A stretch of 64,000 nt of DNA, from the IMG/VR virus record IMGVR_UViG_3300032213_002832, positions 32,001 through 96,000 of that record; one strand, given 5' to 3'. This stretch comes from a virus. The notes under the pieces were generated by a model. It was given only the letters and a program-made list of their open reading frames with translations, had not been told where the DNA came from and searched no databases. The position numbers and the translations under genes are program-made. The number at the start of each line of letters is the position of its first letter. Position 1 is the stretch's first letter. Below, piece after piece: positions 1-64,000 of this stretch.

Positions 1-26
1 TATACCGAAACACAAATGGACACGAT

Positions 27-1400
27 GTGGATATTGAAATTAAAAATAATGAGATAATAATAAAAAATTATACTCTAGATTTTTCTAGTAAGTTAAATGA
101 GCTATTATCTTATAAAGATAAGTCAAAAGAGTACCAGATTAGAAAAATGAGTAAGAACCCGTTTTCGCGTGGCTCTGATCACTATAAGAAACTACTAGAA
201 AGTCAAGAAGGTACCTTAGTTAATGAGCAAAGCGGTGTCATAACTATACCATCTGGTTTTTCATATCTGTTTAAAGATGAAAAATATATTGACAATAGAA
301 AAGATACCGGTAAATCGGTTGTATTTCCATGGAAGTTAAAACCTCATGATATGAGGGATTATCAACTTGAAGCTGTAAATCTAATGTCCAATAACTATCG
401 TGGACTTATTAACTTTGCTACTGGCTTAGGCAAAACACTAACGGCTGTATATGCTGTACGAGCAATTGGTAGGCGAGCACTAATATTATGTCCAAGTAAA
501 GCTATTGCTGATAATTTCCATAGTGAACTATGCTCTGCGTTTGGTGACCATTGCGTCGGGTACTTTGGTGGTGGTAAGAAACAAGTTAAAGATATAACAG
601 TTGGAATCGTTCAATCTGTTGTCAATTCAATTGATACATTTACAAAACATGATCTTGGATTGGTTATATTTGACGAAGTTCATCACTTAGCTGCTGATAC
701 TTTCTTCTCTATTGCTTCTGGACTAATTGGGGTAGGTAGAATGTTTGGTCTCACTGCGACTGACTTTAGATCAGATGGTAAAGATATTATGATTCAGGGC
801 GGAGTCGGTGAAGTCTTAATCAAAAGAGATATTGTATGGGGCATATCAAACAATTGGCTCGCATATCCTAATATTGTAATTAGAGATGTAAAAACAACTG
901 GCCGCGACTATCCTGATGATAAGTTAAAGAACTATAAAGCACATGTACTCAACTCTAGTGAAATGAATAATAGAATTATTCAAGATATTCAGAAATGTTT
1001 AGCAGCTAATAAGTCAGTATTATGTTTAGTAGACCAAAAAGAACATGGTAGAGTTTTAGCAGATGCCCTAGGATTGCCCTTGGCAACAGGGGATGACAAG
1101 AATTCTAAGGTATATATTCAGCAACTGAATGATGGAAGTGTCCCAGGATTGATCGGAACCAGCTCCCTTATTGGTGAGGGATGTGATACTAAGAATGTTG
1201 ATGTATTGGTGTTAGCTAATTTTGTTGCTAACAAAGGGTCACTATGGCAGAATCTTGGGCGTGGATTGAGAAGGCAAGGTATTAAAACACAAGTTTTAGT
1301 ATTAGATTACAAACCAACTGGCTCTAAAATGCTAACACGCCATGCTAATCAGCGCCTAAAACTGTATAAGGCTATTACAAATAATATTAAGGAGGTTTAA
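27..1400 (+). CDS. SF2 DEAD/H-box helicase (UvsW/ResIII-like)
   Basis: Q-motif MRDYQ, Walker A ATGLGKT, Walker B DEVH, motif III TAT, motif VI QNLGRGLR. Confidence 0.9.
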   Translation: MDIEIKNNEIIIKNYTLDFSSKLNELLSYKDKSKEYQIRKMSKNPFSRGSDHYKKLLESQEGTLVNEQSGVITIPSGFSYLFKDEKYIDNRKDTGKSVVFPWKLKPHDMRDYQLEAVNLMSNNYRGLINFATGLGKTLTAVYAVRAIGRRALILCPSKAIADNFHSELCSAFGDHCVGYFGGGKKQVKDITVGIVQSVVNSIDTFTKHDLGLVIFDEVHHLAADTFFSIASGLIGVGRMFGLTATDFRSDGKDIMIQGGVGEVLIKRDIVWGISNNWLAYPNIVIRDVKTTGRDYPDDKLKNYKAHVLNSSEMNNRIIQDIQKCLAANKSVLCLVDQKEHGRVLADALGLPLATGDDKNSKVYIQQLNDGSVPGLIGTSSLIGEGCDTKNVDVLVLANFVANKGSLWQNLGRGLRRQGIKTQVLVLDYKPTGSKMLTRHANQRLKLYKAITNNIKEV

Positions 1401-1690
1401 TGTTCAACATAGATAGAGAAGAGTTAAAGAATAAAATAAACGACAGTATCAATAGTCATTACGCACAAAATATCACTGAGCATATCTATATATCTGGTAG
1501 CGGCTCTAACAGTCATGAATTGGCTGATGGTTTTAATAATATTATTAGAGGTTTAGACGCACGCATCCAAAATCAGATAAAGCAAGCTTTTGAAATACAT
1601 ACAAAAACAATGCTAAGAGATGTTATGTCTGATCTAATAGATAGTTTATATACTGCTGATGACTTTGAAAAAGATCTAGAGCTAAAGTAG
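1400..1690 (+). CDS. hypothetical protein
   Basis: 96-aa ORF, GGAGG RBS, TAATG overlap with helicase stop. Confidence 0.7.
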   Translation: MFNIDREELKNKINDSINSHYAQNITEHIYISGSGSNSHELADGFNNIIRGLDARIQNQIKQAFEIHTKTMLRDVMSDLIDSLYTADDFEKDLELK

Positions 1691-1718
1691 GTTATAATAG
1701 CTTTAGGAGAGCTATTAT

Positions 1719-2258
1719 ATGAAAATAAACAATGCCGGACTTGAATTAATCAAAGATTTTGAAGGCCTATCACTAGTACCATATCCAGATCCTGGAACTA
1801 AAGCTGCCCCATATACCATAGGTATTGGTGCTACTTTTTATCAAGATGGTCGAAAAGTCACTATGGCAGATGCTCCTATTACTGAAGCTCAAGCTATTGC
1901 CCTCCTACAATTCCACCTCACTAAATTTGAACAATCTATAACACAACTTGTTAAAGTACCACTATCTTCTAATCAATTCTCCGCCCTTGTATCTTTTGCT
2001 TATAATTGCGGAACTGGCAATCTTCAAAGTAGTACTCTACTTAAAAAGCTTAACGCATCAGATTATGCTGGAGCAGCTGACGAATTCCTTAAGTGGGACA
2101 AAGCCAATAAGATAGTTATGGCAGGTCTTACTCGTAGACGCAAAGCTGAAAGAGAGCTTTTCTTAAAGTCAGAAACAGCTAAAAACAGCTTATTGCCAGA
2201 TGGTCCAAGCGAGCAAGAAATGAATGAGATTTTAAAGAATCTAGAGAATGGTATCTAA
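1719..2258 (+). CDS. GH24 phage lysozyme (endolysin)
   Basis: IKDFEG..PYPD..YTIGIG catalytic region, NQFSALVSFAYNCG, AADEFLKW, GLTRRRKAERELF; short acidic C-terminal extension. Confidence 0.95.
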   Translation: MKINNAGLELIKDFEGLSLVPYPDPGTKAAPYTIGIGATFYQDGRKVTMADAPITEAQAIALLQFHLTKFEQSITQLVKVPLSSNQFSALVSFAYNCGTGNLQSSTLLKKLNASDYAGAADEFLKWDKANKIVMAGLTRRRKAERELFLKSETAKNSLLPDGPSEQEMNEILKNLENGI

Positions 2259-2724
2259 CAAAAACTACATAGACAGTTCATCTACAACTGTTGTTTATAA
2301 AGGTTGGCTATCAATCTCTCGTCCTGAAAGAAATAAAGACACTACCGTTATCTTATCTAAAAACAAATTCTTCTACCGCCCTAAGAATCATGTATTAACA
2401 GAGTCTATTTACTTTGATGTATATGAGTATGGTCGTTATGTTAATGTGAGGTTGTGGGCCAATAAGAAACAGAAAAATATAGGTATATGCCTTAATGATT
2501 CGTGGATGGGTAGGCTTAATGTTAAATATCAAGAAATAAGTAATATAAATCAATACCTATATTCACGACAGTTTCTAGATATCAATGAATTCAACCTATT
2601 AGACCATTTAACCAAATTTAATGGTCAATATTGTGTTATAGAGATCACTTATAATAAAAGTGAGTTTGACATGATATCTCATGAAGCTGAACTTATTCTA
2701 CTAACAAATGAGATTACAGAGTAG
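2248..2724 (+). CDS. hypothetical protein
   Basis: 158-aa ORF overlapping the lysozyme stop. Confidence 0.6.
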   Translation: MVSNKNYIDSSSTTVVYKGWLSISRPERNKDTTVILSKNKFFYRPKNHVLTESIYFDVYEYGRYVNVRLWANKKQKNIGICLNDSWMGRLNVKYQEISNINQYLYSRQFLDINEFNLLDHLTKFNGQYCVIEITYNKSEFDMISHEAELILLTNEITE

Positions 2725-2733
2725 AATAGTCAC

Positions 2734-3420
2734 ATGAGTGATATTGACATACTAAAACTATATATGAAACAAGCCTGTAAGACACCACTACTTACTTATG
2801 CCCAAGAAGTTCAATTGGCTAAGGAGATAGTGGAGGGTAATATGAGGTCGCGTGAAAAGCTTATACACGCTAATCTACGCCTAGTGATCTCTATAGCCAA
2901 AGCTTATAGTAATCGTGGAATGGCTCTTGAGGATTTGATTCAAGAGGGTAATTTGGGTTTGATTAAAGCCATAGAGAAATTCGAATATCAGCGTGGTTAT
3001 AAGTTTTCGACTTATGCTACTTGGTGGATTCGCCAAGCAGTGACAAGATCTATCGCCGACAAAAATAGATTGATTAGATTACCTGTACACATGGTTGAGA
3101 CCTACAATAAAGTATCTAAAGTAGTTAGCTTATTCGTAACTGAGTTTGGTAGAAGTCCAACTCATAAAGAAATAGCTGAGAAGTCTGGGCTTTCGGTCGA
3201 AAAAGTTAACGATGTAATCAATTACGGTGCCCCTCTCGCAAGTATTGATGATATTTTGATGGAAGATTCTGACGTAAGATTTAGTGATATATTATCTGAC
3301 AATAACTCACCTATATCCTCCTTTATGGAAGACTCTATGAATACTGTTGTCTTTTCATCTCTAAAAGAATTATCTAGCCGTGAAGAAAAAATATTAAGAT
3401 TAAGGTTTGGTATAAAATAA
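2734..3420 (+). CDS. RpoD/RpoS-type sigma-70 factor, C-terminally truncated (no region 4.2 HTH)
   Basis: region 1.2 LKLYMKQ..PLLT, region 2 [42 protein letters not shown], region 3 IRLPVHM; ends at [16 protein letters not shown]. Confidence 0.92.
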
Positions 3421-3443
3421 ACAATATTAATTTCATTGGGTTA

Positions 3444-3671
3444 GTGATGAAAACTTTAATTTTATTGGGCGAAAATAGAACATATTTAGGTTATAAAATC
3501 TTCTCTACTGAAGAGAAACTTGATTTATTCATAGATAAAATCCATCCACTAATGATGGCCAACATTCTTGGCGAACTTCCATTAAAACAGAGACTTGAGA
3601 TAGTTAAAGATGACTATTTCCCCTATGCAGGGTTAGTATTTGATTTCGAAGTTATAGAATTACCTTCCTGA
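3444..3671 (+). CDS. hypothetical protein
   Basis: 75-aa ORF in gene order. Confidence 0.5.
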   Translation: MMKTLILLGENRTYLGYKIFSTEEKLDLFIDKIHPLMMANILGELPLKQRLEIVKDDYFPYAGLVFDFEVIELPS

Positions 3672-3701
3672 AAAATTCACAAAAACCTCTCTATACCTTA
3701 C

Positions 3702-3820
3702 ATAAATGCACTTTAGTGCATTTATAACATTACACACGCATGCGTGTGTAAGAAGAGTAGTGTAACTTAGTGTGAGAAATCTAGAAGAGTAGTCTAGTAT
3801 AGTATAGAATAGTATTGTAG
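3702..3820. repeat. palindrome and direct-repeat cluster (candidate replication origin or operator)
   Basis: ATAAATGCACT-TT-AGTGCATTTAT (3702-3725); perfect 22-bp palindrome TTACACACGCATGCGTGTGTAA (3730-3751); AGAAGAGTAGT twice (3751, 3783); TAGTA/TAGAA pentamer run. Confidence 0.75.
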
Positions 3821-3923
3821 GTTGTTGTTAGATTCATTGTACCCGCGACGAAGCACTTTTTTAGTAAAAAATAAAAATAAATATTTTATGTATAATGCAC
3901 TCATTAATGTTATGGAGATTTTA

Positions 3924-4433
3924 ATGGCTAAAAAAGATTATAAAATTGAAGTTGAATTACTAGAAGGCGGTAAGTTACCAACTAAAGCAAACTCTACTGA
4001 CGCAGGGTTCGACGTATTTGCCACAGAAGACTTGATAATTTTTCCAGGTCAAGTTATTAAAACACCGCTTAATATTCGTATGAAGCTTCCAGCTGGATCT
4101 TGGGCTCGCATTGAAACAAAGAGCGGGCTAGGTTCTAAAGGCATGCTAGTATATGCTGGAGTTGTGGATGAAGGATACCGTGGTATTCCACATGTGATCG
4201 CAACCAACTTAAACTGGAACTTAGAGTGGGCACTTCAGACAAATGGTGGATTTACACCAATAGAGGGAACTGGTGCTAAAGCAATATTACCAATAATTAT
4301 TAAAAAAGGTGAAAAGCTTGCGCAGATCACTATGAATGAGCATTCTAACAAATACTTTATGGTACAAGTTGATAAAGTTGATACAGATACAGCTAGAGCA
4401 ACTGGAGGATTTGGGTCCACTGGTAAAACATAG
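3924..4433 (+). CDS. dut: trimeric dUTPase
   Basis: motifs DAGFDV, KSGL, GVVDEGYRG, KLAQ, RATGGFGSTG; start moved to ATG 3924 behind GGAG RBS. Confidence 0.93.
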   Translation: MAKKDYKIEVELLEGGKLPTKANSTDAGFDVFATEDLIIFPGQVIKTPLNIRMKLPAGSWARIETKSGLGSKGMLVYAGVVDEGYRGIPHVIATNLNWNLEWALQTNGGFTPIEGTGAKAILPIIIKKGEKLAQITMNEHSNKYFMVQVDKVDTDTARATGGFGSTGKT

Positions 4434-4474
4434 GTAAGTGTAGTATAATGCTCACATGTATCCAGGAGGAATGT

Positions 4475-5167
4475 GTGGGCAATAATTTAGATAAGCTTTT
4501 TACTTCAAATATACGAATCTCAAATCTTAATCCCTTCCATTCAGACGCTGTCTGGCCTGCCGGAATCGAAATATGTATCACTCGAGTACCAATACGTAAA
4601 CGAGATGGTTATGATGATGCGATGATTCAAGAATTAGCTTTAAAATTAAAAAATAATATGGTTAAAAATGGAATAGTATTTCTAATATGCTATGCGCCAG
4701 TTGAAGCTAAATTTAGACCTTTTCAGGTTGCTAAGTTTATGACTGATGCTGGTTTTAATCATATTGATAATATTGTAATTCAAAAAACCTGGTATCCAGG
4801 TAAACGATCGGAAATTAACTTAGTCAACTCTCACGAATACGTTATGTACTTTTGTAACGGTGATGTATGGAGTCTAGACCGACTCCCAATCAGACAGTAC
4901 TTAGGTACTGATCCCGAAATATCATGTCCTGGAAACACGTGGAAGGTCCAAACAGGTTCACTCGATGAATCAATACCTCCAGATTTAGCCGAATTATTGC
5001 TTCGCATGACTGACTCACTTCCAGGATCTATAGTTTTTGACCCATTTTTAGGAACAAGTTCCACTCTCCTAGCTTCTCTTAAACTTGGCCATTCTTTCTT
5101 TGGATTTGAATCAGATCCAAAAAGAATAAAAAAATATGAAAAAATAGTAGAGGAGTTTAATAAATGA
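4475..5167 (+). CDS. beta-class N4C/N6A DNA methyltransferase homologue with degenerate catalytic motif IV
   Basis: NSHEYVMYF, IVFDPFLGTSSTL (motif I), FFGFE; expected DPPY position reads TRVPI; probable GTG start after GGAGGA. Confidence 0.75.
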   Translation: MGNNLDKLFTSNIRISNLNPFHSDAVWPAGIEICITRVPIRKRDGYDDAMIQELALKLKNNMVKNGIVFLICYAPVEAKFRPFQVAKFMTDAGFNHIDNIVIQKTWYPGKRSEINLVNSHEYVMYFCNGDVWSLDRLPIRQYLGTDPEISCPGNTWKVQTGSLDESIPPDLAELLLRMTDSLPGSIVFDPFLGTSSTLLASLKLGHSFFGFESDPKRIKKYEKIVEEFNK

Positions 5168-21330: not shown

Positions 21331-21783
21331 ATGACTCGTCCAGTAGAAGAAATCTTAGATCAGCACCGATGGCTCATGAATAATGGGCTAATAAACGATC
21401 TTCATAAGGATACTTTATACCTATACGGTACTTTAGTACACAAAGACGTCCAGGCAGTTGAACTAAGTATAGATGTGGAAAGCAAATCATTGTCCTATAT
21501 AATATATGTAGGCACAAGTTTGTATAAAAGCTATATGACTTACCAAGAATTGCGTACAACTACTACTGTGTTTGGACTTCTAAGATTAAAGTTTCTGCTT
21601 AAGAGAATGGGAAATCTAAATTTTATGGCAATTCTAAACAGTTTTGTAAAGGACTATTGTGGTCCAAATTGGAAAGTGGCATTAGAAATCAAGGATTTTA
21701 AATATTATGAGGACGGTTTTAAGGGGATTAACGACGGATCAGAAGATGATCCACGAGCTAATCCTAATCTTAACAAAGAATGA
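21331..21783 (+). CDS. hypothetical protein
   Basis: 150-aa ORF after TGATATTAT promoter. Confidence 0.7.
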   Translation: MTRPVEEILDQHRWLMNNGLINDLHKDTLYLYGTLVHKDVQAVELSIDVESKSLSYIIYVGTSLYKSYMTYQELRTTTTVFGLLRLKFLLKRMGNLNFMAILNSFVKDYCGPNWKVALEIKDFKYYEDGFKGINDGSEDDPRANPNLNKE

Positions 21784-22153
21784 GGACCTACAACAAGACC
21801 TCTGGCTCTCCTACCTCTGCGGAGAAATAGATTCAACTTTCTCCAATAAATTAAGACAGTTATCCCTATCTCAAAAAATACAACAAACAGCCTCACACAA
21901 CTTTCAAGATATAATCAACTTAAATATTCCACAAGATCAACTAGACGAACTATCAGAGCTACAGTGCTTAATTTTGTTTATGACTATATTAGGTTATAGT
22001 TTAAAACAGGTTAGAGAGTATAATAGTGTAAGTCAGGTTGCTATCAATAAAGAGATGGCTACTCTATCTAAACATGCATTGTGGGTACAGTATGGGTCTA
22101 AAGAGATATCTAAATCCAGATCAAAGATTCGGATTAACAGAACAAGAGATTAA
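21707..22153 (+). CDS. degenerate ECF-sigma-like or HTH protein
   Basis: EDLQQDLWLSYL (sigma2-like) and LSELQCLIL..GYSLKQV...VSQVAI (sigma4-like HTH). Confidence 0.45.
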   Translation: MRTVLRGLTTDQKMIHELILILTKNEDLQQDLWLSYLCGEIDSTFSNKLRQLSLSQKIQQTASHNFQDIINLNIPQDQLDELSELQCLILFMTILGYSLKQVREYNSVSQVAINKEMATLSKHALWVQYGSKEISKSRSKIRINRTRD

Positions 22154-27810: not shown

Positions 27811-28380
27811 ATGACTAAGCGTTTCAATAAGACTAAGGGTGAGCGTTTTCAACAAGCAGAAACCGGAGTTAGCCAATTACAAATGGCCACAAGAGTCACC
27901 CAAATGCTCCTAAAGCAAATGGGCGAATCTATAACTTCAATGTCTAGAGATTTTAATGAACTAACTGCTCGTCAGCGCGATCTGCAATATAAAGTCTTAG
28001 CAATTCAAGAGCTTTCTGGTTTAACTGAAGACCATGTTACTAAACGCGCAGAGTCATTGCAGATTAAGGATTTTGAAGAGACCTCTGCTAAAGAAGATCT
28101 TGCCGTAGGCGCAACGGATGTAGCGGAAGTTGCTGACGATTCTGTTGTAATTTTGACATCTAAACTAGCTTCTGGCGGAGGTATTCTTAGAACTAGATTA
28201 AACGTATCAGAGATTGGATTTCCACAATTTAAACAAGACCTTTTAGGTAAAAAAGTAAATGATACTTTTGATGCAGATATTAACGGAACTACACATAGTA
28301 TAACTGTTCTTGGTATTAAAAAGTTACCAGCAAAGGTAGAAAATGTTGAAGGACAAGAACAACCAACCTCAATCAACTAA
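27811..28380 (+). CDS. coiled-coil plus GreA-C/FKBP-like domain protein
   Basis: N-terminal coiled coil; C-terminal FKQDLLGKKVNDTF...ITVLGI resembles GreA/GreB C-domain (ALLGKKVGD..V...I). Confidence 0.55.
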   Translation: MTKRFNKTKGERFQQAETGVSQLQMATRVTQMLLKQMGESITSMSRDFNELTARQRDLQYKVLAIQELSGLTEDHVTKRAESLQIKDFEETSAKEDLAVGATDVAEVADDSVVILTSKLASGGGILRTRLNVSEIGFPQFKQDLLGKKVNDTFDADINGTTHSITVLGIKKLPAKVENVEGQEQPTSIN

Positions 28381-28783
28381 GAAGATTGATTCTAGATGCC
28401 CTCGCCAGCTAGAGTGTTTACCAGATACCTGGTGCGCCCTAGCGGTCCAGCGTTTAAAAGCGCTAAGACATGCTGGCAGAGAACTCTCGGAAGAAGAAGA
28501 GGCAAAACTCCCAGGTTGCCCCTACGCTACCAATCATCAACTAGCTAATTACTGCTTTTTCAAACTAGTCGAAGAATTCCTTCCAGAAGGAAGAAGTTTC
28601 TCTGATATGGAAATAGCTCATTTTCTAAATATATCTACCGATACTGTTAAGAAGGTTGAGAAAAAGGCTATTCAGCGTATTAAGAATTCGCCAGTATTCA
28701 GAGAAATAATAGATATGCATGATGGTGATCAGATTATGGAAGAAACCACTGATTTTAGAGAATCTGACCATACTAAAGAGTAG
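28343..28783 (+). CDS. Cys-rich protein with sigma-70 region 4.2-like HTH
   Basis: FSDMEIAHFLNISTDTVKKVEKKAIQRIK; five Cys in the N-terminal half. Confidence 0.7.
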   Translation: MLKDKNNQPQSTKKIDSRCPRQLECLPDTWCALAVQRLKALRHAGRELSEEEEAKLPGCPYATNHQLANYCFFKLVEEFLPEGRSFSDMEIAHFLNISTDTVKKVEKKAIQRIKNSPVFREIIDMHDGDQIMEETTDFRESDHTKE

Positions 28784-53109: not shown

Positions 53110-53506
53110 CTTCTTCCTTTTTAAGGTAATCTACAAAGCCAGCTTTACAAGTAGCTTTTTTATTCTCAAGCTCACCAGACAACATAGCTTCCATAAGTAT
53201 TTCTACATGCTTTGCTTCAATGTAGTCGATAGTACAGGCATCTAGAACTTGTGGAGGTTTGCCGAAAGTTTTAGAAGGTATCATGGCTTTAGCATGAAGC
53301 TGTTGATCAATATGGATATTAGCTACAGTTTCTACCATCTCTAAGAAGTCAAATGGCCCACAAACTGACTCTGAGATAAACTTAGGCTTGGCTCTATCAC
53401 CAGTAGATATAGCAACAAGAAAGGTTTTATCTTTGATTTCAGAGAGATCCATTTCACCCAATTCTCCGATCCAAGTTTCAGGATCTGCTGTTGGTAAATC
53501 ACTCAT
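53084..53506 (-). CDS. hypothetical protein
   Basis: 140-aa ORF with AGGA RBS. Confidence 0.7.
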   Translation of the reverse strand: MSDLPTADPETWIGELGEMDLSEIKDKTFLVAISTGDRAKPKFISESVCGPFDFLEMVETVANIHIDQQLHAKAMIPSKTFGKPPQVLDACTIDYIEAKHVEILMEAMLSGELENKKATCKAGFVDYLKKEEDAEQDAST

Positions 53507-53559
53507 ATAAAAATCCTTATAAAATTATTACTAACCCATCGAATCGGTTTTGTTTAACT

Positions 53560-54045
53560 CTAGATAGGTTTAGCTTTTAAAACGTTTTTAAGATAAGTCT
53601 CAGCTTGTAATTTAGTTTTATGTTTTTTGCGTAGAGGATTTGAAATGGTTTTGCCGTTTCTAATAATGCCATATCCACTATCAATTTCATTTAAATCGTA
53701 TGTTACACCAGTTTCATCAGCATACTGATTAGATACCGATTTCGCTGGCACACTAACAGTTGGTTTGGCAATTGATGATAATCTACTTGTTACGGCCTTT
53801 TTAGCTATGATAAAAAATTCATCACCACTACTGCGATTCTTTCTAGATACATAGTCACCCTGCTGAAGTATATCTTTATATACTTTAATATCAACTGGCC
53901 CATGAATAACTGTTCCGTTTTGCTCTTTAGCTTCTACATGCGTATATTTCCCACTACGAATCTTTTCTATCTCAGATTTCCATATTAGTGTAGTATTCGC
54001 AAAACTCTCTGCTGATGTGGACTTCTTAATAGTTAATACTCTCAT
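53560..54045 (-). CDS. hypothetical basic protein
   Basis: 161-aa ORF behind the conserved 30-bp leader. Confidence 0.7.
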   Translation of the reverse strand: MRVLTIKKSTSAESFANTTLIWKSEIEKIRSGKYTHVEAKEQNGTVIHGPVDIKVYKDILQQGDYVSRKNRSSGDEFFIIAKKAVTSRLSSIAKPTVSVPAKSVSNQYADETGVTYDLNEIDSGYGIIRNGKTISNPLRKKHKTKLQAETYLKNVLKAKPI

Positions 54046-54050
54046 ACCTT

Positions 54051-54080
54051 CTCCTTTGTCATAATTGACATTTATTGATT
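54051..54080 (-). promoter_or_regulatory. 30-bp conserved leader with TGTCA-N4-TGACA palindrome (copy 2)
   Basis: reverse complement AATCAATAAATGTCAATTATGACAAAGGAG. Confidence 0.8.
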
Positions 54081-54090
54081 ATTCTTATAC

Positions 54091-54867
54091 TTAACCTAGC
54101 ATCTTTAATATTGCGTCTTTATCTTTTTCATAGATATGGCAAGAATGAACCACGTGAGTGTAGTCGCCTTTAGTAAGTGTTGGGTACGTAGGTTTTAACT
54201 CATCAATCATCTTATCCATAAGAGATACAAAAAATGGAAGATCATACACTAGTCCGCGAAATAAATCATTAGACCTCATAACTACTGAAAAATACAACTT
54301 ATCATTACGTATTAAAAAATTACCGTGCATGGTACAGGTCTGATCTTTATTACCCATATATTGATGTTCTGGTAAACTAAATCGCAATATAGCTTGACGC
54401 GTATCTTTGTCTGCCTTTAAAGATTCTAAACACCATTCCCACGGCGATCGATAAATAGATTGAGCTCTTATACTAATCCCACCATCTTCAAAGCTACGCT
54501 TTTTAGTATACTCATAATTCTCATTACCACAACTCTTGTTTTCCCATATCAAATACCCGTAAGCCGAATTGATAGTCCCATCTGGATTGGCTATCTTCTC
54601 CCAAAACTTAGAGGCCTTAGCAAAATCTTCTACACGATTAGAGCGAGAATTGTAAAGCTCAACCTCTTTAGCTGTATAGTCAGCTATTACTTTATTTCGC
54701 TCTAAGTCTTTAGTGATAATAGGTTCAGAAACTGGATCAGAGACTGTAAAAGTGTAGTTTAAGATCTCTCTAACTGGCATTCCACGTGGTGATGCTATAA
54801 AATCTGGAAAGTACCATACTTGCTGTAGCGCGTCTAAATACGCTTCATGTATATTCTTGTATGTCAT
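54091..54867 (-). CDS. thymidylate-synthase-fold enzyme, dCMP hydroxymethylase/methylase type
   Basis: SPRG, NSAYG, DTRQA, catalytic Cys in DQTCT, MRSNDLFRGLVYD, SCHIYE. Confidence 0.85.
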   Translation of the reverse strand: MTYKNIHEAYLDALQQVWYFPDFIASPRGMPVREILNYTFTVSDPVSEPIITKDLERNKVIADYTAKEVELYNSRSNRVEDFAKASKFWEKIANPDGTINSAYGYLIWENKSCGNENYEYTKKRSFEDGGISIRAQSIYRSPWEWCLESLKADKDTRQAILRFSLPEHQYMGNKDQTCTMHGNFLIRNDKLYFSVVMRSNDLFRGLVYDLPFFVSLMDKMIDELKPTYPTLTKGDYTHVVHSCHIYEKDKDAILKMLG

Positions 54868-55532
54868 TTATATCCCTCTAAGAATTCTTCATCTCTATTA
54901 GATCTCATTTTCAATAATTCTACAAACATTGCGCGTTGATATTTATCTACCTTAAAACCTTTTTCAATATATTTTACTAATCTTTTTACAGTGATGCTTC
55001 TAGCTTCAGTCTGAAAAACAATTCTCTTATCTACACAGTCACCTATCGCACCTTGAACACTAATGACTTGGCGCTTAACTGGATCATAAGCTATGGCACA
55101 AGCTCTTATATCGAAGTGACTTATGAGATCTTCTGGGGTATTAAATGGTACACCTACAATTAGGTTGTAAGTAACGTTACGATAAACATGCGCACATAAA
55201 TCGTACATAAAATTAGTAGGTTTACTAAACCCATTAATAGCACACCATAAAGTAGCATGTTCTTTAGAATGGAAGTATATGTCAATATCGTTGTGAATTA
55301 TGCTTTGATTTATATAGTGGCACATATAAGAACCAGCTATAATCTCACCATTATCTACGTATTCTGACTCATTGAGCCAACGTAAGGCATTAATCGGACT
55401 AGTTAATATTAAGTTTTCATTTCTATAAAGAAATTCTGGTACTGGTTTATCGTTTAGTAAAAAACTATTTTGAATATCATCAATTTGCTTTTTATAATGT
55501 TCTTCCGCATTATATTCCATGAGTATATCCAT
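54864..55532 (-). CDS. Pol-beta superfamily nucleotidyltransferase (CCA/poly(A) polymerase head-like)
   Basis: IIAGS..NDIDIYF, FDI..CAIAYD, RLVKYIEKGF. Confidence 0.75.
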   Translation of the reverse strand: MDILMEYNAEEHYKKQIDDIQNSFLLNDKPVPEFLYRNENLILTSPINALRWLNESEYVDNGEIIAGSYMCHYINQSIIHNDIDIYFHSKEHATLWCAINGFSKPTNFMYDLCAHVYRNVTYNLIVGVPFNTPEDLISHFDIRACAIAYDPVKRQVISVQGAIGDCVDKRIVFQTEARSITVKRLVKYIEKGFKVDKYQRAMFVELLKMRSNRDEEFLEGYK

Positions 55533-55544
55533 ATAAACCCCTTT

Positions 55545-55934
55545 TTACTCGTCTTCAAACCTATCACCAATTACTTCTTCGACTGGACTCATCCAGACCC
55601 CGTAGCCGTAACGCTTCTTGGTAAGCTTTTTCATAAGTTGACCAACTCTATTATATAAGTGCTGAAACACAAACGTAAACTCTTTAACACTCCTACCATC
55701 TGCTGTACGATACTCAGGATTATAGTTTTGTAAAGCTATTACCAGCTGATAATAAAGTTCTTGGCGCATATCAGCCATGGTCATGCCAGTATTACCTAAC
55801 GATATGTCTGAATCACCAGCAGACATATTAGCTTCTTTCCAATTCTTAACAATACTATCTCTTAAGTACTTATTAACTAATGGCATATACTTCTTAATAT
55901 CAGCGTTTGTAACTACCCTACGTTGCTTATTCAT
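55545..55934 (-). CDS. stand-alone sigma-70 region 2-like protein
   Basis: YMPLVNKY..DMRQE....L..ALQNYNP..F.FVFQHLYN matches the sigma2 pattern; no region 4. Confidence 0.6.
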   Translation of the reverse strand: MNKQRRVVTNADIKKYMPLVNKYLRDSIVKNWKEANMSAGDSDISLGNTGMTMADMRQELYYQLVIALQNYNPEYRTADGRSVKEFTFVFQHLYNRVGQLMKKLTKKRYGYGVWMSPVEEVIGDRFEDE

Positions 55935-56473
55935 CTTCTTATCTTTCTTTTGGATGTTTCAGGTGATTCGTATCGGTTTTTAATTAAAAGCAATACTGAT
56001 CGACAAACCTTTAAATGATCTTCAGTCCATGCGGGTTTTGAAGTTGTGAACTTATCAAACTCGTATAAATCTTTCATAAACGCTTCATTACGTATAAAAC
56101 TATTATTCATAGTAGTATCTCGATACCACTTGTATAGTGATGTCAACTTGTTATTACTATGCCCACCCCTTTTATTTATGAAGTCAAGGACCTTATCTCG
56201 CATATTATGGTTGATGCGAGAATAGATTGAGTCAATACTATAGTTAACATCATACTTGTTTCTTTCTAGATTAAACTTTAAATCCGTACAAGATCTCACA
56301 GCCTCTATAACCGCATCATTTATACCATGTATTGCTTGTGAATTAAAGATGAATTGTTTATTGTATCTAAAGTAGATTTGATCTGCGCCATAAGTCAATA
56401 TTGGCGCTATTATAGGTTCTGGTAATTCAATAGCTGAAATCACTTTAGCTACGTCATCTCGTAAATGCTTCAT
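55931..56473 (-). CDS. hypothetical protein
   Basis: GGAGG RBS, coupled ORF. Confidence 0.7.
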   Translation of the reverse strand: MKHLRDDVAKVISAIELPEPIIAPILTYGADQIYFRYNKQFIFNSQAIHGINDAVIEAVRSCTDLKFNLERNKYDVNYSIDSIYSRINHNMRDKVLDFINKRGGHSNNKLTSLYKWYRDTTMNNSFIRNEAFMKDLYEFDKFTTSKPAWTEDHLKVCRSVLLLIKNRYESPETSKRKIRR

Positions 56474-57174
56474 ACAACCTCCTCCATAGAGTAAATTGGA
56501 TTCTTCTTATGTGTCATACACTTGAGTTTGCTTATGTTTGCTAGAGAGTAGGCATCTCCATTTTTAGCATAACTTTTTATCCACTTGAGAAGCTTGATAA
56601 TCAAATCTACATTTTTAATATTCCAAGTATTGTCATAAACTATACGACCAATATGCGTTTGAAGTACGCGTGCTCTTTTATTAATGGCTCGTGATCGACC
56701 GTTTTCTTTACATTCTAATAAATCCGATAATACACTAATATTGGCAGGTTTTGCGCTAGCTACATTGATACAAAGTTCGTGTCTGCTATTAAGATAAGGT
56801 AGTAACTCTTTGATTTCATCGTCACCCAATGATTCTTTCTCTTTCACTATACTAATGCGACCTACTATTCTTTTTTCAGCAACCTCTATTTTAGTACCTG
56901 GCTCAACTGTCATTTTAAAATAACGTTCAAACCCAATCAAGTCAAACAGCTCTGCTTGCTCTTTCGAGATACCAGCTTTATCCAACATCCTATTACAAAA
57001 ATACTCTAATCTCAAATGTCTATCATCAGCAATATATGGAACCAACTCTTCGTATTCAAGCACATACTCTGAAGGTAGTTTAACTAATGTATCACTTAAA
57101 GAAAAAGTATAAGGTTCAATTGCCTTATTCAACCAATCCATCTCTTCATATTGCTTATCATCTAAAAATGCCAT
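56470..57174 (-). CDS. hypothetical protein
   Basis: GGAG RBS, 234 aa. Confidence 0.7.
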   Translation of the reverse strand: MAFLDDKQYEEMDWLNKAIEPYTFSLSDTLVKLPSEYVLEYEELVPYIADDRHLRLEYFCNRMLDKAGISKEQAELFDLIGFERYFKMTVEPGTKIEVAEKRIVGRISIVKEKESLGDDEIKELLPYLNSRHELCINVASAKPANISVLSDLLECKENGRSRAINKRARVLQTHIGRIVYDNTWNIKNVDLIIKLLKWIKSYAKNGDAYSLANISKLKCMTHKKNPIYSMEEVV

Positions 57175-57182
57175 CTGTTCTC

Positions 57183-57707
57183 CTAATTGTCAAACCAAAA
57201 AACAACACGAACCTCTGGATTTATATCGGATCGGTTTAGAAGCATAGCCTCCGCAGCCTCATTATTAATCCACTCTTCACAGTAGTTGATGATAGTAGTA
57301 TAGTCTTCAGGGCGTTTCTTACCACCATGGTAGTCACTATATTCAAAAAAAGCTTGAGTAGACTTATTATCTGTAGGATAATACTCTGCTTCTATAAGAC
57401 ATTGCTTAAATTCTTCAAGAGAAAGCCAACTATGTGAATGTCCATCAACATACCTATCATATTCCCATCTCAATAACTCTGAAATATCTTCTGGTATCCC
57501 TTTAGGTGCGCGTATTACTGCTGTACCATAACGACGCACACTAGCAAGTATTCCAAATAAATCATAGTTCCTGCCTGTAGCATTCACTTGTTCTAAATAC
57601 TTATAATTATCGCCATCTTCACTATTTACTGTATGGTTTTCATCTAGTTGCCAAGGGTCTTCTTTTCTAAGGCGCTTTTCCAAAAATACATGAATATCAC
57701 ATCCCAC
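57183..57707 (-). CDS. conserved phage protein (MGCDIH family)
   Basis: MGCDIH, RNYDLFGILA.VR, PKGIPED, HSHSWL...E, RVVFWFDN. Confidence 0.8.
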   Translation of the reverse strand: MGCDIHVFLEKRLRKEDPWQLDENHTVNSEDGDNYKYLEQVNATGRNYDLFGILASVRRYGTAVIRAPKGIPEDISELLRWEYDRYVDGHSHSWLSLEEFKQCLIEAEYYPTDNKSTQAFFEYSDYHGGKKRPEDYTTIINYCEEWINNEAAEAMLLNRSDINPEVRVVFWFDN

Positions 57708-57726
57708 CTATAACCCCTTATTATCA

Positions 57727-58017
57727 TTATTTAACTTCAAAACCTGCTTCTTGTGCCTCTTTTAAAGAGAGGTCACCGCGCTTCTCGTCTGCGCGACGTG
57801 TTCTAGCATAGCTAAACTTCTCATAATAAACAAAACGACCATCTGGTATAGTCGTTTTATATACGGTTCCATCCGCATCTTGAAAATAACTGTTGACACC
57901 AATCTCAGCCACTACTGTTTCAAGCGCAGTAGAGAGCTCGTCAAAATACTTCTTTACTTCACTCTTCTTACGTTCTAGCTCAATGAACCGCTGAATCGCC
58001 GGCGTTAGATTTGACAT
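57727..58017 (-). CDS. hypothetical protein
   Basis: start moved to ATG 58017 behind GGAG. Confidence 0.65.
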   Translation of the reverse strand: MSNLTPAIQRFIELERKKSEVKKYFDELSTALETVVAEIGVNSYFQDADGTVYKTTIPDGRFVYYEKFSYARTRRADEKRGDLSLKEAQEAGFEVK

Positions 58018-58540
58018 CCTTATTCTCCTCAGTATTTTTAACGACACGAAGAATTCGCGTCTTACTTGTAGGATTCGGATCGGTTTTTAATTCTGCTATT
58101 TTATCTTCAGGTAGTAGACCAGACTCAAGGTATGGGAGTAGTTGTGAAGCCTTCATGGTTTTAGCTTCTCCATCTATTCTTATGCTCATAGTAGGATCAG
58201 CTCCATCTTTAAGCATGCTTCTAAATAGATCTAGTTTCTCTTCTTCCATAGCTTTAATTTTAGATACTAAAGAGTTTTTATATCGGCCATGAGCAGCACT
58301 AGCATTAGGTTGGTCTAGAGCTCCAAAAATCTGTATTTGCTCATTAGATATTTCGTTAATACGTTCTATTTTGGCTTGTAGCATGCCATTTTTAACACCT
58401 TCATCATAGGCGTAATTAATGTTTTTAACTATGTTTCTCTCAACACCACTAAGTAGTAGGTTATTGAAGAAGTTACTTATATAATAACCAATTAATGAAC
58501 CAACAATCAATGCGCAAGTAATAGATAACAGTAATAACAT
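57980..58540 (-). CDS. N-terminally membrane-anchored hypothetical protein
   Basis: hydrophobic first 25 aa. Confidence 0.65.
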   Translation of the reverse strand: MLLLLSITCALIVGSLIGYYISNFFNNLLLSGVERNIVKNINYAYDEGVKNGMLQAKIERINEISNEQIQIFGALDQPNASAAHGRYKNSLVSKIKAMEEEKLDLFRSMLKDGADPTMSIRIDGEAKTMKASQLLPYLESGLLPEDKIAELKTDPNPTSKTRILRVVKNTEENKDVKSNAGDSAVH

Positions 58541-58594
58541 ACAATCCTTTCAATAATATATCAATAGGATTATACAAAACCGTGTTTAATTAAT

Positions 58595-59173
58595 TTATTC
58601 GTTATCTTCGATTGGTAGAGATTCTAATATTTTTTCTATATCAAGTAATTGTAGTGTTTTTTCTAAACCTTCATTACCATGTTCTAAAGCCTTGGCTCGA
58701 AGCAGTGTCATAAAATCTTCAGGGTCAATATCATGTTTCTTTAACTTCTTTTTCCAAGCAGCTAGTTTCTTAGGGTCAACTTTATGGCGCCCTCGGTTTA
58801 GTTTCTCAGGGACCATGCGTGTATTTTTTGCTGCGTATCCATGACTATTGTTTTTTCTATCTGGAGATAGTTTCTGACCGGTTTTCTTTTCAGCTGCTTG
58901 GGTTTGCTTTACAATGGAAGCACGAGATCCTCTACCCTTAGACTTATGGCTTGCTGTACCATTCTTACCGTCTTGGCGCCTTAAAGCATCGTCCGCCTTA
59001 GTTTGCGCTCTCTGCCAGTGGCCAGGCTTTTTCTTATTAGCAGATAGCTTATTTAAGCAACCTCTACAGCGTCCAGCTGGATTAGACTTATTAGCACTAG
59101 TTTTTCCGCAACGAGGGCAGGATTTTATTAGTTCTTCTAATTCAGAAGCTACAAGTTTGTCTAGTATTTCCAA
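58595..59173 (-). CDS. basic Zn-finger, degenerate HNH-like protein flanked by LxK motifs
   Basis: CPRC..CRGC; LSPDRKNNSHGYAAKNTRMVPEKLN resembles SIDRIDN..GY...N...V....N; TTG start with GGAG RBS and TGGTATAAT promoter. Confidence 0.6.
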   Translation of the reverse strand: MEILDKLVASELEELIKSCPRCGKTSANKSNPAGRCRGCLNKLSANKKKPGHWQRAQTKADDALRRQDGKNGTASHKSKGRGSRASIVKQTQAAEKKTGQKLSPDRKNNSHGYAAKNTRMVPEKLNRGRHKVDPKKLAAWKKKLKKHDIDPEDFMTLLRAKALEHGNEGLEKTLQLLDIEKILESLPIEDNE

Positions 59174-59229
59174 GGTTTATCTCCAAAACATAATAAGTCA
59201 TTATATTTACAATTATACCACAGATAATA

Positions 59230-59258
59230 AGTAAGCCCTGGCATTTCTACCAGGGCTT
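59230..59258 (-). terminator. terminator hairpin downstream of tRNA
   Basis: AAGCCCTGG-N8-CCAGGGCTT. Confidence 0.7.
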
Positions 59259-59316
59259 TATTTTGCCAGAGTTTCCTCTGGCTAACACGTTCACTTTCGA
59301 TCCCGTGGATTCGGCT

Positions 59317-59392
59317 TGGACGCGGGTGTGGGATGTGCGCCCACGATCTGAAGGTTATGAGCCTTCCGAGATAACTGCTACTCTAACCCGCA
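59317..59392 (-). tRNA. tRNA-Met (CAT), initiator-like, atypical D and T loops
   Basis: 76 nt: acceptor TGCGGGT/ACCCGCG, anticodon arm GAAGG-CTCATAA-CCTTC, T arm GTGGG-CGCACAT-CCCAC, encoded CCA; TGGTATAAT 5 nt upstream. Confidence 0.85.
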
Positions 59393-59414
59393 CATTCATT
59401 ATACCACATTTTCG

Positions 59415-59933
59415 TTAATCCCAAAGTGTTCTCCAATATTTACCTAAGTGCTTGAATAAACGATCATATAGTTCATCTTCTTTTTTAGCACTTTTCTCAT
59501 ACATCTCTCTCGAATCGGTTTCAGCCAACTCATGTAGCTCTGGAGTGTTAGCCTTGCTATAGCTCACCTTTAGTGCTTTATATCTTCTCTTATCAGCCTT
59601 TTCAGCTATAATCTCTTCAAAGCTATACTTTGTATCACCCCATTTATCATTGAATTCTTTTTTATAGAGTTCAGTATCATATTGGCTTTTAATACGCTCA
59701 AAAAGATATACAGCATAATCTATACGTCTACAAATAGTATTATGGTCAGTAACTAGCTGATTTCTACGTATACACTTAGACATACGCTTAAGCTTGAATA
59801 TAATCATATCTTCAAGAAATCCATAGTCATAATCTCTATCCTCTTTAAGAAGAGGTAGCCAATCTTTGATGCGATTAGCTGTTTGTATTTTAACTTTTGT
59901 TTTTCTATGCTTCTGGCGTTTTCTACTGTTCAT
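59415..59933 (-). CDS. hypothetical phage protein
   Basis: DRDYDYGFL..FKLKRM and C-terminal W..LWD pattern common in large phages. Confidence 0.7.
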   Translation of the reverse strand: MNSRKRQKHRKTKVKIQTANRIKDWLPLLKEDRDYDYGFLEDMIIFKLKRMSKCIRRNQLVTDHNTICRRIDYAVYLFERIKSQYDTELYKKEFNDKWGDTKYSFEEIIAEKADKRRYKALKVSYSKANTPELHELAETDSREMYEKSAKKEDELYDRLFKHLGKYWRTLWD

Positions 59934-60147
59934 TATTTACCCCTCCAGTTGCTTGTTTGTTCAATAAGTACTCAGTATAGATTGCGGCAAGTATGAGTGC
60001 TGGCCAAGCAAATATAATACCTGCTAGACCCATATACACACCGTTTAATCCAGCACCAAAAAATAAACCAACAAACGTTGTACCAATAAACAGGCATAAC
60101 GTGTTTACTAAAGTCGTTTTAGCTAGTCTGACAAGATCATATTTCAT
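59923..60147 (-). CDS. small two-TM membrane protein
   Basis: two hydrophobic helices. Confidence 0.65.
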   Translation of the reverse strand: MKYDLVRLAKTTLVNTLCLFIGTTFVGLFFGAGLNGVYMGLAGIIFAWPALILAAIYTEYLLNKQATGGVNNEQ

Positions 60148-60156
60148 ATTTTATCC

Positions 60157-60627
60157 CTATACTAGAGTACTTGCATTAAAGTAGCCACCAACATAGTTGC
60201 CAGATTGGAAATCTTTAAAAAACCACTCTATTTCTCCACTAATACAAACATCTATTGATAGTTTAGCTCTTTTCAAATACCATGCCAATACTAATCCGCC
60301 ATCTTCTGAAGTACATACAACAGGTACTGGCATTTTAAAACCTACCTTTTTATCTAGTCTAGATCTAATTCTACTTACAACTTCAAAAACAAATTCATCT
60401 ACGTTCTCTTCGTCACTCTGTTCATCACATATAGTTTTTAGCTTTACAAGATACTCATTCCAAGCTTGCTCTTTTTCTTCAGGATTACTTTTAGGCCAAA
60501 AGTAATTGCATATTTTATCACCTAAAATTTGTTCAGGTAAATTTTTATGCCAGTATTCAATACGCTGTTTGGCAATTTTTGAACACACATCATCACAAAG
60601 TTTATCAATATAATCATTATTGCTCAT
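60157..60627 (-). CDS. hypothetical protein
   Basis: GGGGG RBS, 156 aa. Confidence 0.65.
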   Translation of the reverse strand: MSNNDYIDKLCDDVCSKIAKQRIEYWHKNLPEQILGDKICNYFWPKSNPEEKEQAWNEYLVKLKTICDEQSDEENVDEFVFEVVSRIRSRLDKKVGFKMPVPVVCTSEDGGLVLAWYLKRAKLSIDVCISGEIEWFFKDFQSGNYVGGYFNASTLV

Positions 60628-60760
60628 TATTTACCCCCTGATTTAAAAACTCATGATATCTACGTGTATCTCTTTTAGCTTTCTCATATAAGAAATAGAC
60701 AAAGATTAAGAAGCACGAAATGATTATGCAATGTATAGTTTTTAACGTCTTATGACTCAT
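60617..60760 (-). CDS. 47-aa single-TM protein (not in ORF track)
   Basis: MSHKTLKTIHCIIISCFLIFVYFLYEKAKRDTRRYHEFLNQGVNNEQ; fills the gap with overlaps at both ends. Confidence 0.55.
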   Translation of the reverse strand: MSHKTLKTIHCIIISCFLIFVYFLYEKAKRDTRRYHEFLNQGVNNEQ

Positions 60761-61143
60761 TATCTACTCTGTGTTAAAGATGTTTCTAATCTAAAAACAA
60801 ACTCACTGGTTAATTCGTATAAGCCATTAAGATCTTTACAGTACAACCTACCTAAATAGGCATTGTTTGTAAACCTATCATTGCGTCCCCAAACAGGTTG
60901 TCTCACTTTAAACTTACAGCCAGTTTTATTATCATCAAGATAAGTACCACGAGTAAACTTGGGATTGAACATATGTTGATTACATAAGTCGAACTCTCGT
61001 TGAGTAACTATTTTATACCCATTATCTTGACTCTCACACTCCCTGTGACCCCTACTACCGTCACTCATCTTAAAATTATGAGGTACATTGCTAGTATCAC
61101 AACCTGTTAGCATAAGTAATAGTATAAGCTTATTCTTCATCAC
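60760..61143 (-). CDS. lipoprotein
   Basis: MKNKLILLLMLTG|C lipobox. Confidence 0.65.
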   Translation of the reverse strand: MMKNKLILLLMLTGCDTSNVPHNFKMSDGSRGHRECESQDNGYKIVTQREFDLCNQHMFNPKFTRGTYLDDNKTGCKFKVRQPVWGRNDRFTNNAYLGRLYCKDLNGLYELTSEFVFRLETSLTQSR

Positions 61144-61531
61144 ACCCTTTATCCCCAGGAATTCTCACTATTAGATCTACACTTTCTGAATAGTACCCGT
61201 TGCTTTCGCCGTGCCACCTAACATCCACATAACCTTTTACAGTAGCAAATTTATAGAAGGTCCAAGTATGACTATTATCCATTTGAATACGACCATTAAT
61301 ATTTTCTTCAAATGATTCAGACGTCGATTCCTCTGCCACCAATAATGGTGTACCAATTAAGTCATTTAAATCACCAGCGATATCATCAATACGAACATGT
61401 TCACAACACTGCTGATCATGATAGAACACCCATTTAGTACCATTCTCTTCACAAAATACCAACCTCTCACCGCCAGTTGTACCGCTTACATTAGCGAAGG
61501 TTTTACCAACCATATCAGATATAGTTTTCAT
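61130..61531 (-). CDS. conserved phage protein (H-x-Q-x-CCE...ESNGYYSE family)
   Basis: HDQQCCE.V, DL.G.P...AEE, TWTFYKFAT.KG.V..RW.GESNGYYSE; start moved to 61531. Confidence 0.8.
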   Translation of the reverse strand: MKTISDMVGKTFANVSGTTGGERLVFCEENGTKWVFYHDQQCCEHVRIDDIAGDLNDLIGTPLLVAEESTSESFEENINGRIQMDNSHTWTFYKFATVKGYVDVRWHGESNGYYSESVDLIVRIPGDKGCDEE

Positions 61532-61665
61532 TTTGCCTTCCTTCTTTCTCTCCACTCAACTATTTCTCGCATCATAGCAGCTTTCAGCTCTTCTATAGGT
61601 ACATCGCTCCATATTATAAAATGCTTGGGATGACATTACCTTAATTCCAAATATTTCTAAAAACT

Positions 61666-61842
61666 TCATTTCTTTATCGCCTTTTCAATCTTAGCACAAG
61701 CCTTTAGTATATCCTCAGCAAGCTTCTTAGCTTCGCTCAATGTCATCCAATCGGAAGAAGCGACATAATCCGTAAAATGAATATACCACCCAGGTGGGGA
61801 TGGTTCGATTGAACCTTTAAATGCTTTAACTTTACGTCTCAT
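61666..61842 (-). CDS. 58-aa hypothetical protein (not in ORF track)
   Basis: MRRKVKAFKGSIEP...AIKK, AGGTG RBS, TAATG coupling. Confidence 0.55.
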   Translation of the reverse strand: MRRKVKAFKGSIEPSPPGWYIHFTDYVASSDWMTLSEAKKLAEDILKACAKIEKAIKK

Positions 61843-62357
61843 TATTTATCACCTTTCATTAGTTTTTTCAATGCTTCATTAGGTTCTGGACTTTCTACGA
61901 AGTCTTCGCCGTCAATCTCTTCGAATGGTAAATCCGGTTCACCTAGCTCTTCATTACATAGACCTTGTGGCAATGGTATCCAGCCAGTAACTTTGCCCGA
62001 TATAATATCTTCATGTTCACCAAAACTATAACAGAATTTACCACTTTTTCTATCTTTAAAACCTAATGTAGTCCAACTAGAAAACTCTGTTTCAATAAGT
62101 AATATGGCTTCATTATTAGTGATTGTATCAATAGGTAACCAATCTTTACGTCTAGTTTTTTGTAGTTCAATTGATTTAGCTATGTTTCTAAGCAAAAATC
62201 TTTCTACATCTTTACCGTTATTTGTAGCACAACGACATCCGCCATTAGTGCACATACCAGTTGGTATGACATACTTACAACCACTATCACCACAACCTAA
62301 ACCATAAGCAGCAGGATCTTCAAACCAATCCCAATTACCTATTAAAGACTTAACCAT
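61842..62357 (-). CDS. Cys-cluster plus DUF551-like protein
   Basis: GCGDSGC..GMCTNGGCRC; W.PI.T...VTGWIPLP. Confidence 0.6.
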   Translation of the reverse strand: MVKSLIGNWDWFEDPAAYGLGCGDSGCKYVIPTGMCTNGGCRCATNNGKDVERFLLRNIAKSIELQKTRRKDWLPIDTITNNEAILLIETEFSSWTTLGFKDRKSGKFCYSFGEHEDIISGKVTGWIPLPQGLCNEELGEPDLPFEEIDGEDFVESPEPNEALKKLMKGDK

Positions 62358-62413
62358 CTAATACACCTCATTATTTAACTAATTGTAGCGTGTTTGTATC
62401 ATTTAATTGTGTG

Positions 62414-62872
62414 TTATTTCCAACTAAAGTATAGACCAACCTTTTCATCATCAGTGGAACGATATGTAGTAATATGAAAACCATTAAATACCGGATCTTT
62501 TTCAAACATTTCATAAATTTTCCATATCATGTCGAATTCGCTAATCTTAAGCTTGAGATCTCCAATATGCTCTAATACCAATTTATTAACTTTAACGTAT
62601 TGATCTACCCGACCTTCAACTGCTGCTTCTCTTAAGCGCTCTAGTACTAATGGTTTATACTCTAATTCATATAAGCCACATATTATCTCATTATCGTTAT
62701 TGCGAATAAAACTAGCTGTATTCTGTAGTTCCAACTTAAATTGAGAAGGTTCAGACTCTTTTTTAAGCTCAGAAATAGGTTTACGATTAACAATCTTATC
62801 ATCTGCTATAAAAAAACGATATACCGCATATATAAAACCAAATAATGCTAGCACACAAGCTAAAACACCCAT
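62414..62872 (-). CDS. N-terminally anchored membrane protein
   Basis: GGAGG RBS, hydrophobic N-terminus. Confidence 0.65.
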   Translation of the reverse strand: MGVLACVLALFGFIYAVYRFFIADDKIVNRKPISELKKESEPSQFKLELQNTASFIRNNDNEIICGLYELEYKPLVLERLREAAVEGRVDQYVKVNKLVLEHIGDLKLKISEFDMIWKIYEMFEKDPVFNGFHITTYRSTDDEKVGLYFSWK

Positions 62873-62887
62873 AAATACCTCCTTATA

Positions 62888-62995
62888 TTATTCATCGTCG
62901 TGGTCGTCTATACCCTTATATTCATCCATCATAATCACCATGATAACAACGCCCATAATAACAGCGAATACTAAAAACATCGCAATCTTTATCAT
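62888..62995 (-). CDS. 35-aa single-TM peptide (not in ORF track)
   Basis: MIKIAMFLVFAVIMGVVIMVIMMDEYKGIDDHDDE, GAGG RBS. Confidence 0.5.
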   Translation of the reverse strand: MIKIAMFLVFAVIMGVVIMVIMMDEYKGIDDHDDE

Positions 62996-62997
62996 AA

Positions 62998-63691: not shown

Positions 63692-63702
63692 ATCAATACA
63701 CC

Positions 63703-63918: not shown

Positions 63919-64000
63919 TATAAATCTCCATGAAGTAATTTTAATTCAGTTAACTCATTTAATAACTCATCCATATCATATTTTTGTCTTACATTATCCC

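Follow-up and report, generated by a model that had tools for sequence, protein, structure and literature searches.

Domain 4 is normally considered an integral part of group 1 to 3 sigma factors. Sigma appropriation by phage T4 (AsiA/MotA) is a case in which a phage protein remodels host sigma70 and domain 4 stops reading the -35 element. The outcome is a holoenzyme with a -35-blind domain 4 and an upstream region left free for another factor, an outcome to which the locus described here may be likened, although this phage brings its own sigma without region 4.2. The genes for SigO and RsoA are adjacent and act together. Their products constitute a two-subunit sigma of Bacillus subtilis (PMC10141391) and provide a natural precedent for sigma functions divided over two polypeptides; in the present case, however, the candidate partner is encoded 25 kb from the sigma and belongs to a family that occurs both with and without the sigma. 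The late system of T4 consists of gp55 and gp33, together with the gp45 clamp, and the small gp33 holds the beta flap instead of sigma domain 4 (PMC2988020, PMC7892883). Like gp55, the protein discussed below is a phage-encoded reduced sigma for which no -35 box would be needed, but gp55 is a minimal, sigma2-like factor that reads TATAAATA, whereas the phage sigma here is a near-complete RpoD spanning regions 1.2 to 4.1. The closest parallel in domain content is an engineered E. coli sigma70: in a review (PMC2613000, on Kumar et al. 1993), sigma70 without region 4.2 is described as transcribing TGn/-10 promoters and not -35-dependent ones. Both proteins have regions 2 and 3 and lack the -35-reading helix-turn-helix (HTH), and the readers of the TG and -10 elements are kept here. 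The phage protein differs in being natural, ancient and selected, in keeping the 4.1 helix and in lacking region 1.1, and it is known from its sequence. Literature searches brought up no account of a natural RpoD-type phage sigma without region 4.2, nor of the related proteins treated below.

The DNA analysed here, a window of 64,000 nucleotides, corresponds to bases 32001 to 96000 of a phage record (IMG/VR) that is complete at 167.5 kb and has terminal repeats. Independent contigs place this phage in lake and freshwater metagenomes, and its closest cultured relative is Myxococcus phage Mx1, with as little as 28% identity in the large terminase. The sigma-70-family gene lies on the + strand at positions 2734 to 3420 and encodes a protein of 228 aa, in which translation, Pfam and PHROGs together identify regions 1.2, 2, 3, 3.2 and 4.1 only. 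Pfam matches above cut-off were obtained for Sigma70_r1_2 (PF00140, residues 5-36, 30.9 bits), region 2 (PF04542, residues 43-112, 81 bits, profile positions 1-70 of 71) and region 3 (PF04539, residues 122-191, 39.9 bits). The protein is assigned to the phrog_351 sigma factors (E 1e-66), shares about 50% identity with bacterial RpoD and is RpoD/RpoS-like (group 1-2) in regions 1.2, 2 and 3. Sigma70_r4 (PF04545) is matched only over profile positions 2-22 of 50, at the extreme C terminus, which bears out the original prediction that the sigma ends just before the -35-reading HTH. A complete region 4 with its 4.2 HTH is absent, as is region 1.1. The chain closes with the remnant of region 4.1, a C-terminal helix at residues ~205-228 (3346..3417, + strand) recognised by the partial PF04545 match and by its conservation in alignments; it ends in ...LRLRFGIK and is followed by a TAA stop codon (3418..3420, + strand) at the 4.1/4.2 boundary.

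The claim that the protein does not continue in another frame also held. A hidden 4.2 exon reached through an intron, readthrough or frameshift was rejected, since there is no downstream r4 signal and no Rfam family or intron in positions 2500-4100. An atypical split intein was likewise rejected, as reading of the sequence revealed no intein-like extension beyond the FGIK end. A Pfam search of the rest of the 167.5-kb genome returned no r4-like piece other than that in ORF 28343-28783. Within the parts that are retained, alignments of the truncated family show that Q101, H119 and E122 are invariant and T104 nearly so; we take these to be the equivalents of E. coli sigma70 Q437, H455, E458 and T440, readers of the -10 and TG elements. 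Conservation also extends to the 3.2 linker and the 4.1 helix, both of which are present throughout the family. In the helix, L213, S214, R216 and E217 hardly vary and E218 and K219 not at all, a strength of conservation that suggests the helix binds something.

The endpoint of the protein is a conserved feature. More than 25 homologues were found, with lengths of 228-237 aa. In a large protein collection, 27 of them have 64-100% identity and almost all of these are 228-229 aa long, further groups of 230-237 aa have ~43-53% identity, and a region 4 domain is found in none of the 27 or of the further groups. No cultured-phage relative in the searched collection exceeded 47% identity to the truncated sigma. 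Homologues do end at the same residue, as the original prediction would have it: 20 that were aligned (43-94% identity) stop 0-4 residues past the FG[IL] motif closing the 4.1 helix, and bacterial RpoD of similar identity runs on into the 4.2 HTH. Close relatives have TGA at the position where the window has TAA. The stop itself is sound: in three other runs, from lakes or freshwater, contigs extend past the 3' end of the gene and its stop without any indel. Purifying selection is evident over the whole gene (pN 0.09-0.15 against pS 0.71-0.86, with synonymous sites saturated) and over codons 201-228 (pN 0.10-0.30 against pS 0.66-0.92), so that the last 28 codons are constrained too.

In a maximum-likelihood tree a branch separates the truncated sigmas from 30 full-length ones, and it persists without the 4.2 columns (SH-aLRT 85 for the 14 truncated sequences together, 96 for 13 of the 14). 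This topology fits, but does not prove, a single old loss of region 4.2. The family occurs in at least three different phage contexts, and its clade is deep and almost entirely confined to phage-like surroundings. The most basal truncated sigma, P0240 (L189:10001-10714), is 237 aa long, ends in ...RLRFGIC and is carried by contigs of 134-203 kb with cellular-type genes (RsgA, a ribosome hibernation factor, glycoside hydrolases). From this context, an RpoD-like sigma without region 4.2 may also exist in a bacterium. A 128-aa 'sigma4' gene near P0240 was considered as a partner and rejected, as it is a piece of an ECF sigma.

How might such a protein function? The reading that we favour, to which we give about an even chance of being right, is that ORF 2734-3420 encodes a stand-alone, -35-blind phage sigma of the RpoD/RpoS type, which competes for core enzyme and favours phage promoters consisting of a -10 element only. 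It is preferred because the published sigma70 without region 4.2 works on TGn/-10 promoters and not on -35-dependent ones. The truncated sigma retains what should be the core-binding and promoter-opening parts, namely region 1.2, region 2 with its -10 readers, the TG-reading His/Glu pair of region 3.0, the 3.2 finger and, from region 4, a single helix. After infection, it would compete with the host primary sigma for core enzyme, and the resulting holoenzyme would start only at promoters free of -35 contacts, such as those of the phage (T)G(n)TATAAT type. Host promoters that depend on the -35 element would be ignored, and transcription would shift toward the phage. As for the 4.1 helix, it probably keeps its place at the beta flap or offers an auxiliary protein a point of contact. 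The domain content, the shared endpoint, the purifying selection and the promoter repertoire are observed directly, whereas core binding, promoter class and timing are what we infer from sequence, and none of the public runs is listed as an RNA dataset holding this phage.

The promoter repertoire of the phage was surveyed over the full 167.5-kb genome. Intergenic TATAAT is found 60 times, against 32 in shuffles, and the extended forms are more strongly enriched, with 23 against 4.9 for GTATAAT and 11 against 1.6 for TGnTATAAT. TTGACA is not enriched between genes (5 against 7.4 in shuffles), and the 11 canonical -35/-10 matches in positions 1-4500 fall below the shuffled expectation of 18.7. 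In 40 oriented promoters, information is confined to the hexamer and a G at -13, and nothing positional is seen further upstream. This G is the most frequent upstream base, in place of the classical T-15 G-14. Oriented intergenic TATAAT boxes of the window and of two complete relatives that lack the sigma (G006 and G008) prefer G at -13 (0.45-0.70), and those of G008 also prefer T at -15. The preference for G-13 without a -35 signal may reflect the host primary sigma. The -35-less pattern is just as enriched in G006 and G008 as in the phage studied here, and such promoters therefore do not require the truncated sigma; the host sigma is presumably able to use -35-less TATAAT promoters. The original suggestion that the sigma acts alone on -10-only promoters fits best, with the TG/-10 readers kept and no -35 signal present, although the occurrence of the same promoters in sigma-less relatives counts against it.

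A second explanation, which we consider unlikely, is a two-piece sigma. Here the truncated protein would supply domains 2 and 3 and the 4.1 helix, and the product of ORF 28343 would bind to this helix as well as to the beta flap and would contact upstream DNA. This ORF (28343..28783, + strand) encodes 146 aa with a sigma4-like HTH at the C terminus and four Cys that are invariant, as judged from a PF04545 match below cut-off, Atlas neighbours and a family alignment. A WhiB-like reading of the four Cys was rejected, as their spacing does not fit that of WhiB proteins. PF04545 coverage in the two proteins is complementary, with positions 2-22 in the sigma and 25-49 in ORF 28343 (21 bits, gathering cut-off 24.1), and the Atlas clusters closest to ORF 28343 (0.91-0.96) consist of viral 'sigma-70 region 4' proteins. 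When sigma residues 120-228 were modelled with ORF 28343 residues 14-130, the complex prediction reached a score of 0.58, compared with 0.00 for the highest-scoring control. Agreement between runs covered at least 53% of contacts, with a partner pLDDT of 68 or more; the tool classes such a result as weak support. The score may reflect memory, because sigma4 folds are solved.

Other properties of ORF 28343 fit this pairing less well. The AF2 model (pLDDT 61) has helices at 65-79, 88-95, 99-114 and 117-125, and at this low confidence the protein appears to form a complete unit of the sigma4 type, in which residues 65-79 make up a 4.1-like helix of its own. A Foldseek search of the model against the PDB gave nothing at E <= 0.001, a PDB profile search reached sigma4 chains at E ~1 only, and the recognition helix, as read from the sequence, is without the -35-reading residues of RpoD. 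The family, with 33 IMG/VR loci, is a core gene of the phage group. It is present in three complete 176-kb relatives without any RpoD-like sigma and, by family HMM, in two complete phages with full-length sigmas, so its presence does not track the truncation. The 28343-family HMM had no match in the readable parts of the clade B contigs, which are fragments, and no sigma4-like gene was seen in the readable contig parts of clade B and of the P0157 lineage. No upstream element shared among the TATAAT promoters was detected, moreover. The product of ORF 28343 may be an auxiliary factor, but it is not simply what the sigma has lost. The stand-alone 4.2-like HTH that had been proposed at 28343-28783 is supported as sigma4-like by its Atlas neighbours, although its region 4 match is below cut-off and, in the low-confidence model, it has a 4.1-like helix of its own. 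The broader proposal of separate sigma2 and sigma4 modules is partly supported: the truncation is old and falls exactly at the 4.1/4.2 boundary, and the complex score of the pair lends weak support, but the failure of ORF 28343 to track the truncation speaks against it.

A stronger case for division of a sigma can be found elsewhere. About 65 of 80 IMG/VR sigma loci (L019-L083) form a separate clade (SH-aLRT 95) of viral RpoD-like sigmas of 256-294 aa, in which the 4.1 helix with its FGL motif, the same as in the truncated family here, is followed by an acidic tail of 23-29 residues and no HTH. In four of five large contigs with acidic-tail sigmas, a distant ORF of 79-90 aa encodes a Cys-rich N terminus and an RpoD-like region 4.2 (L155-L158), with PF04545 matches of 28-37 bits, above cut-off. 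From their sequences, an acidic-tail sigma and its 4.2 miniprotein make a stronger candidate for a genuinely split sigma than does the pair in the window. The occurrence of such 4.2 proteins in this other clade is in favour of a two-piece arrangement and makes trans-complementation a realistic design; at the same time, the 28343-family HMM misses the RpoD-like 4.2 proteins, no homology being detectable between the miniproteins and the ORF 28343 family. Neither ORF 28343 nor the RpoD-like 4.2 miniprotein has a cultured-phage relative in the searched collection. A general scheme can be imagined in which freshwater phages use modular sigmas, with a 4.2-less RpoD-type body on core RNA polymerase, such as the truncated sigma here or those of the acidic-tail clade, and a separately encoded small Cys-rich subunit of the sigma4 type at the beta flap setting upstream specificity. 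This scheme is doubtful, and so, to a like degree, is the assignment of the subunit to the ORF 28343 product here and to the RpoD-like 4.2 miniproteins in other lineages.

Further sigma modules had been proposed within the window, namely a 'sigma2-only' protein at 55545-55934 (- strand) and a 'degenerate ECF-like' protein at 21707-22153. Neither gave a sigma match in Pfam or PHROGs, and both were dropped from consideration. A mini-sigma2 is nevertheless encoded by the phage outside the window, at genome positions 112116-112520 (L123:1372-1776, + strand), as a 134-aa protein with a weak match to sigma region 2. The module belongs to the core gene content of the phage group and forms the C terminus of 500-600-aa proteins in complete relatives; in G006, the protein bearing it adjoins a likely structural gene. 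The mini-sigma2 may be a minimal sigma resembling gp55, perhaps delivered with the virion, and it is more likely than the truncated sigma to be this genome's analogue of gp55. About 20 copies of AAACCGAWYCGA lie on the - strand from window positions 53500-64000 to genome ~144 kb, upstream of - strand genes, and usually have TATAAT 8-10 nt later. The sigma-less G006 has ~13 copies of the box on one strand, 22-50 nt before start codons and without TATAAT. From its placement in G006, the CCGAWYCGA box behaves as a -10-like element and seems to mark a second class of promoters read by a phage factor, presumably the mini-sigma2. Its use as a -35-like site (CCGAWTCGA) for ORF 28343 or the truncated sigma was rejected, since the G006 copies precede start codons without TATAAT, and TATAAT after the box fails in G004 as a marker of sigma-bearing phages.

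It is also conceivable, though improbable, that the truncated sigma acts mainly as a competitor or decoy that occupies host core RNA polymerase or titrates a host or phage regulator of sigma and so shuts down host transcription dependent on the -35 element, with initiation of its own being secondary. The core-binding regions are intact and highly conserved, the gene is accessory and limited to a subclade, and sigma-less relatives share the promoters, so that the sigma is not needed for reading them. All of this would suit a decoy, but a pure decoy would not be expected to preserve the residues of regions 2.4 and 3.0 that read DNA, and these do not vary within a deep clade.

Very little probability can be given to a cofactor encoded next to the sigma that replaces domain 4, as T4 gp33 does for gp55. 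The candidates are a 158-aa ORF upstream (2248..2724, + strand), without a Pfam or PHROG match, and a 75-aa ORF downstream (3444..3671, + strand), without a family match; neither has a feature match. The order of 158-aa ORF, sigma and 75-aa ORF is kept in four of five close relatives, and in L004-L007 the ATG of the 75-aa ORF overlaps the sigma stop (ATGA), an arrangement that suggests translational coupling of the two genes in these relatives. Against such a role, both ORFs are missing from L008, from clade B and from the P0157 lineage, all of which have the same truncated sigma. Beyond the 75-aa ORF, a 150-nt gap (3672-3821) before the dUTPase gene holds perfect hairpins at ~3704-3723 and ~3732-3749 with no T-run after them, and in L008 this position is occupied by GC-rich hairpins and TATAAT boxes. 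The wider gene order in the window (1719-4433) is cell-wall hydrolase, short ORF, truncated sigma and dUTPase, and in the P0157 lineage (L191) it is peptidase M15, a 148-aa ORF on the opposite strand, sigma and dUTPase_2. The recurrence of a hydrolase-to-dUTPase order in so distant a lineage suggests a mobile or conserved cassette. Lastly, the idea that the stop is a recent nonsense mutation, an assembly error or the mark of a decaying pseudogene is already refuted by an endpoint shared among more than 25 independent assemblies (43-94% identity, differing stop codons), by strong purifying selection, by the independent contigs that cross the stop and by the failure to find a downstream remnant coding for region 4.2, and no point was found in its favour.

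What is new here is an RpoD-type sigma that lacks the DNA-reading half of domain 4 and is natural, old and under selection, a form until now known solely as a laboratory truncation. Its existence suggests that phages may use -35-blind holoenzymes as a routine design. The truncated sigma offers a simple natural system in which -35-independent initiation and competition for core enzyme can be studied, and together with small stand-alone proteins of the sigma4 type it makes the splitting of sigma function into exchangeable subunits testable. If the modular arrangement were true, classes of promoters would be switchable by the exchange of one small subunit.
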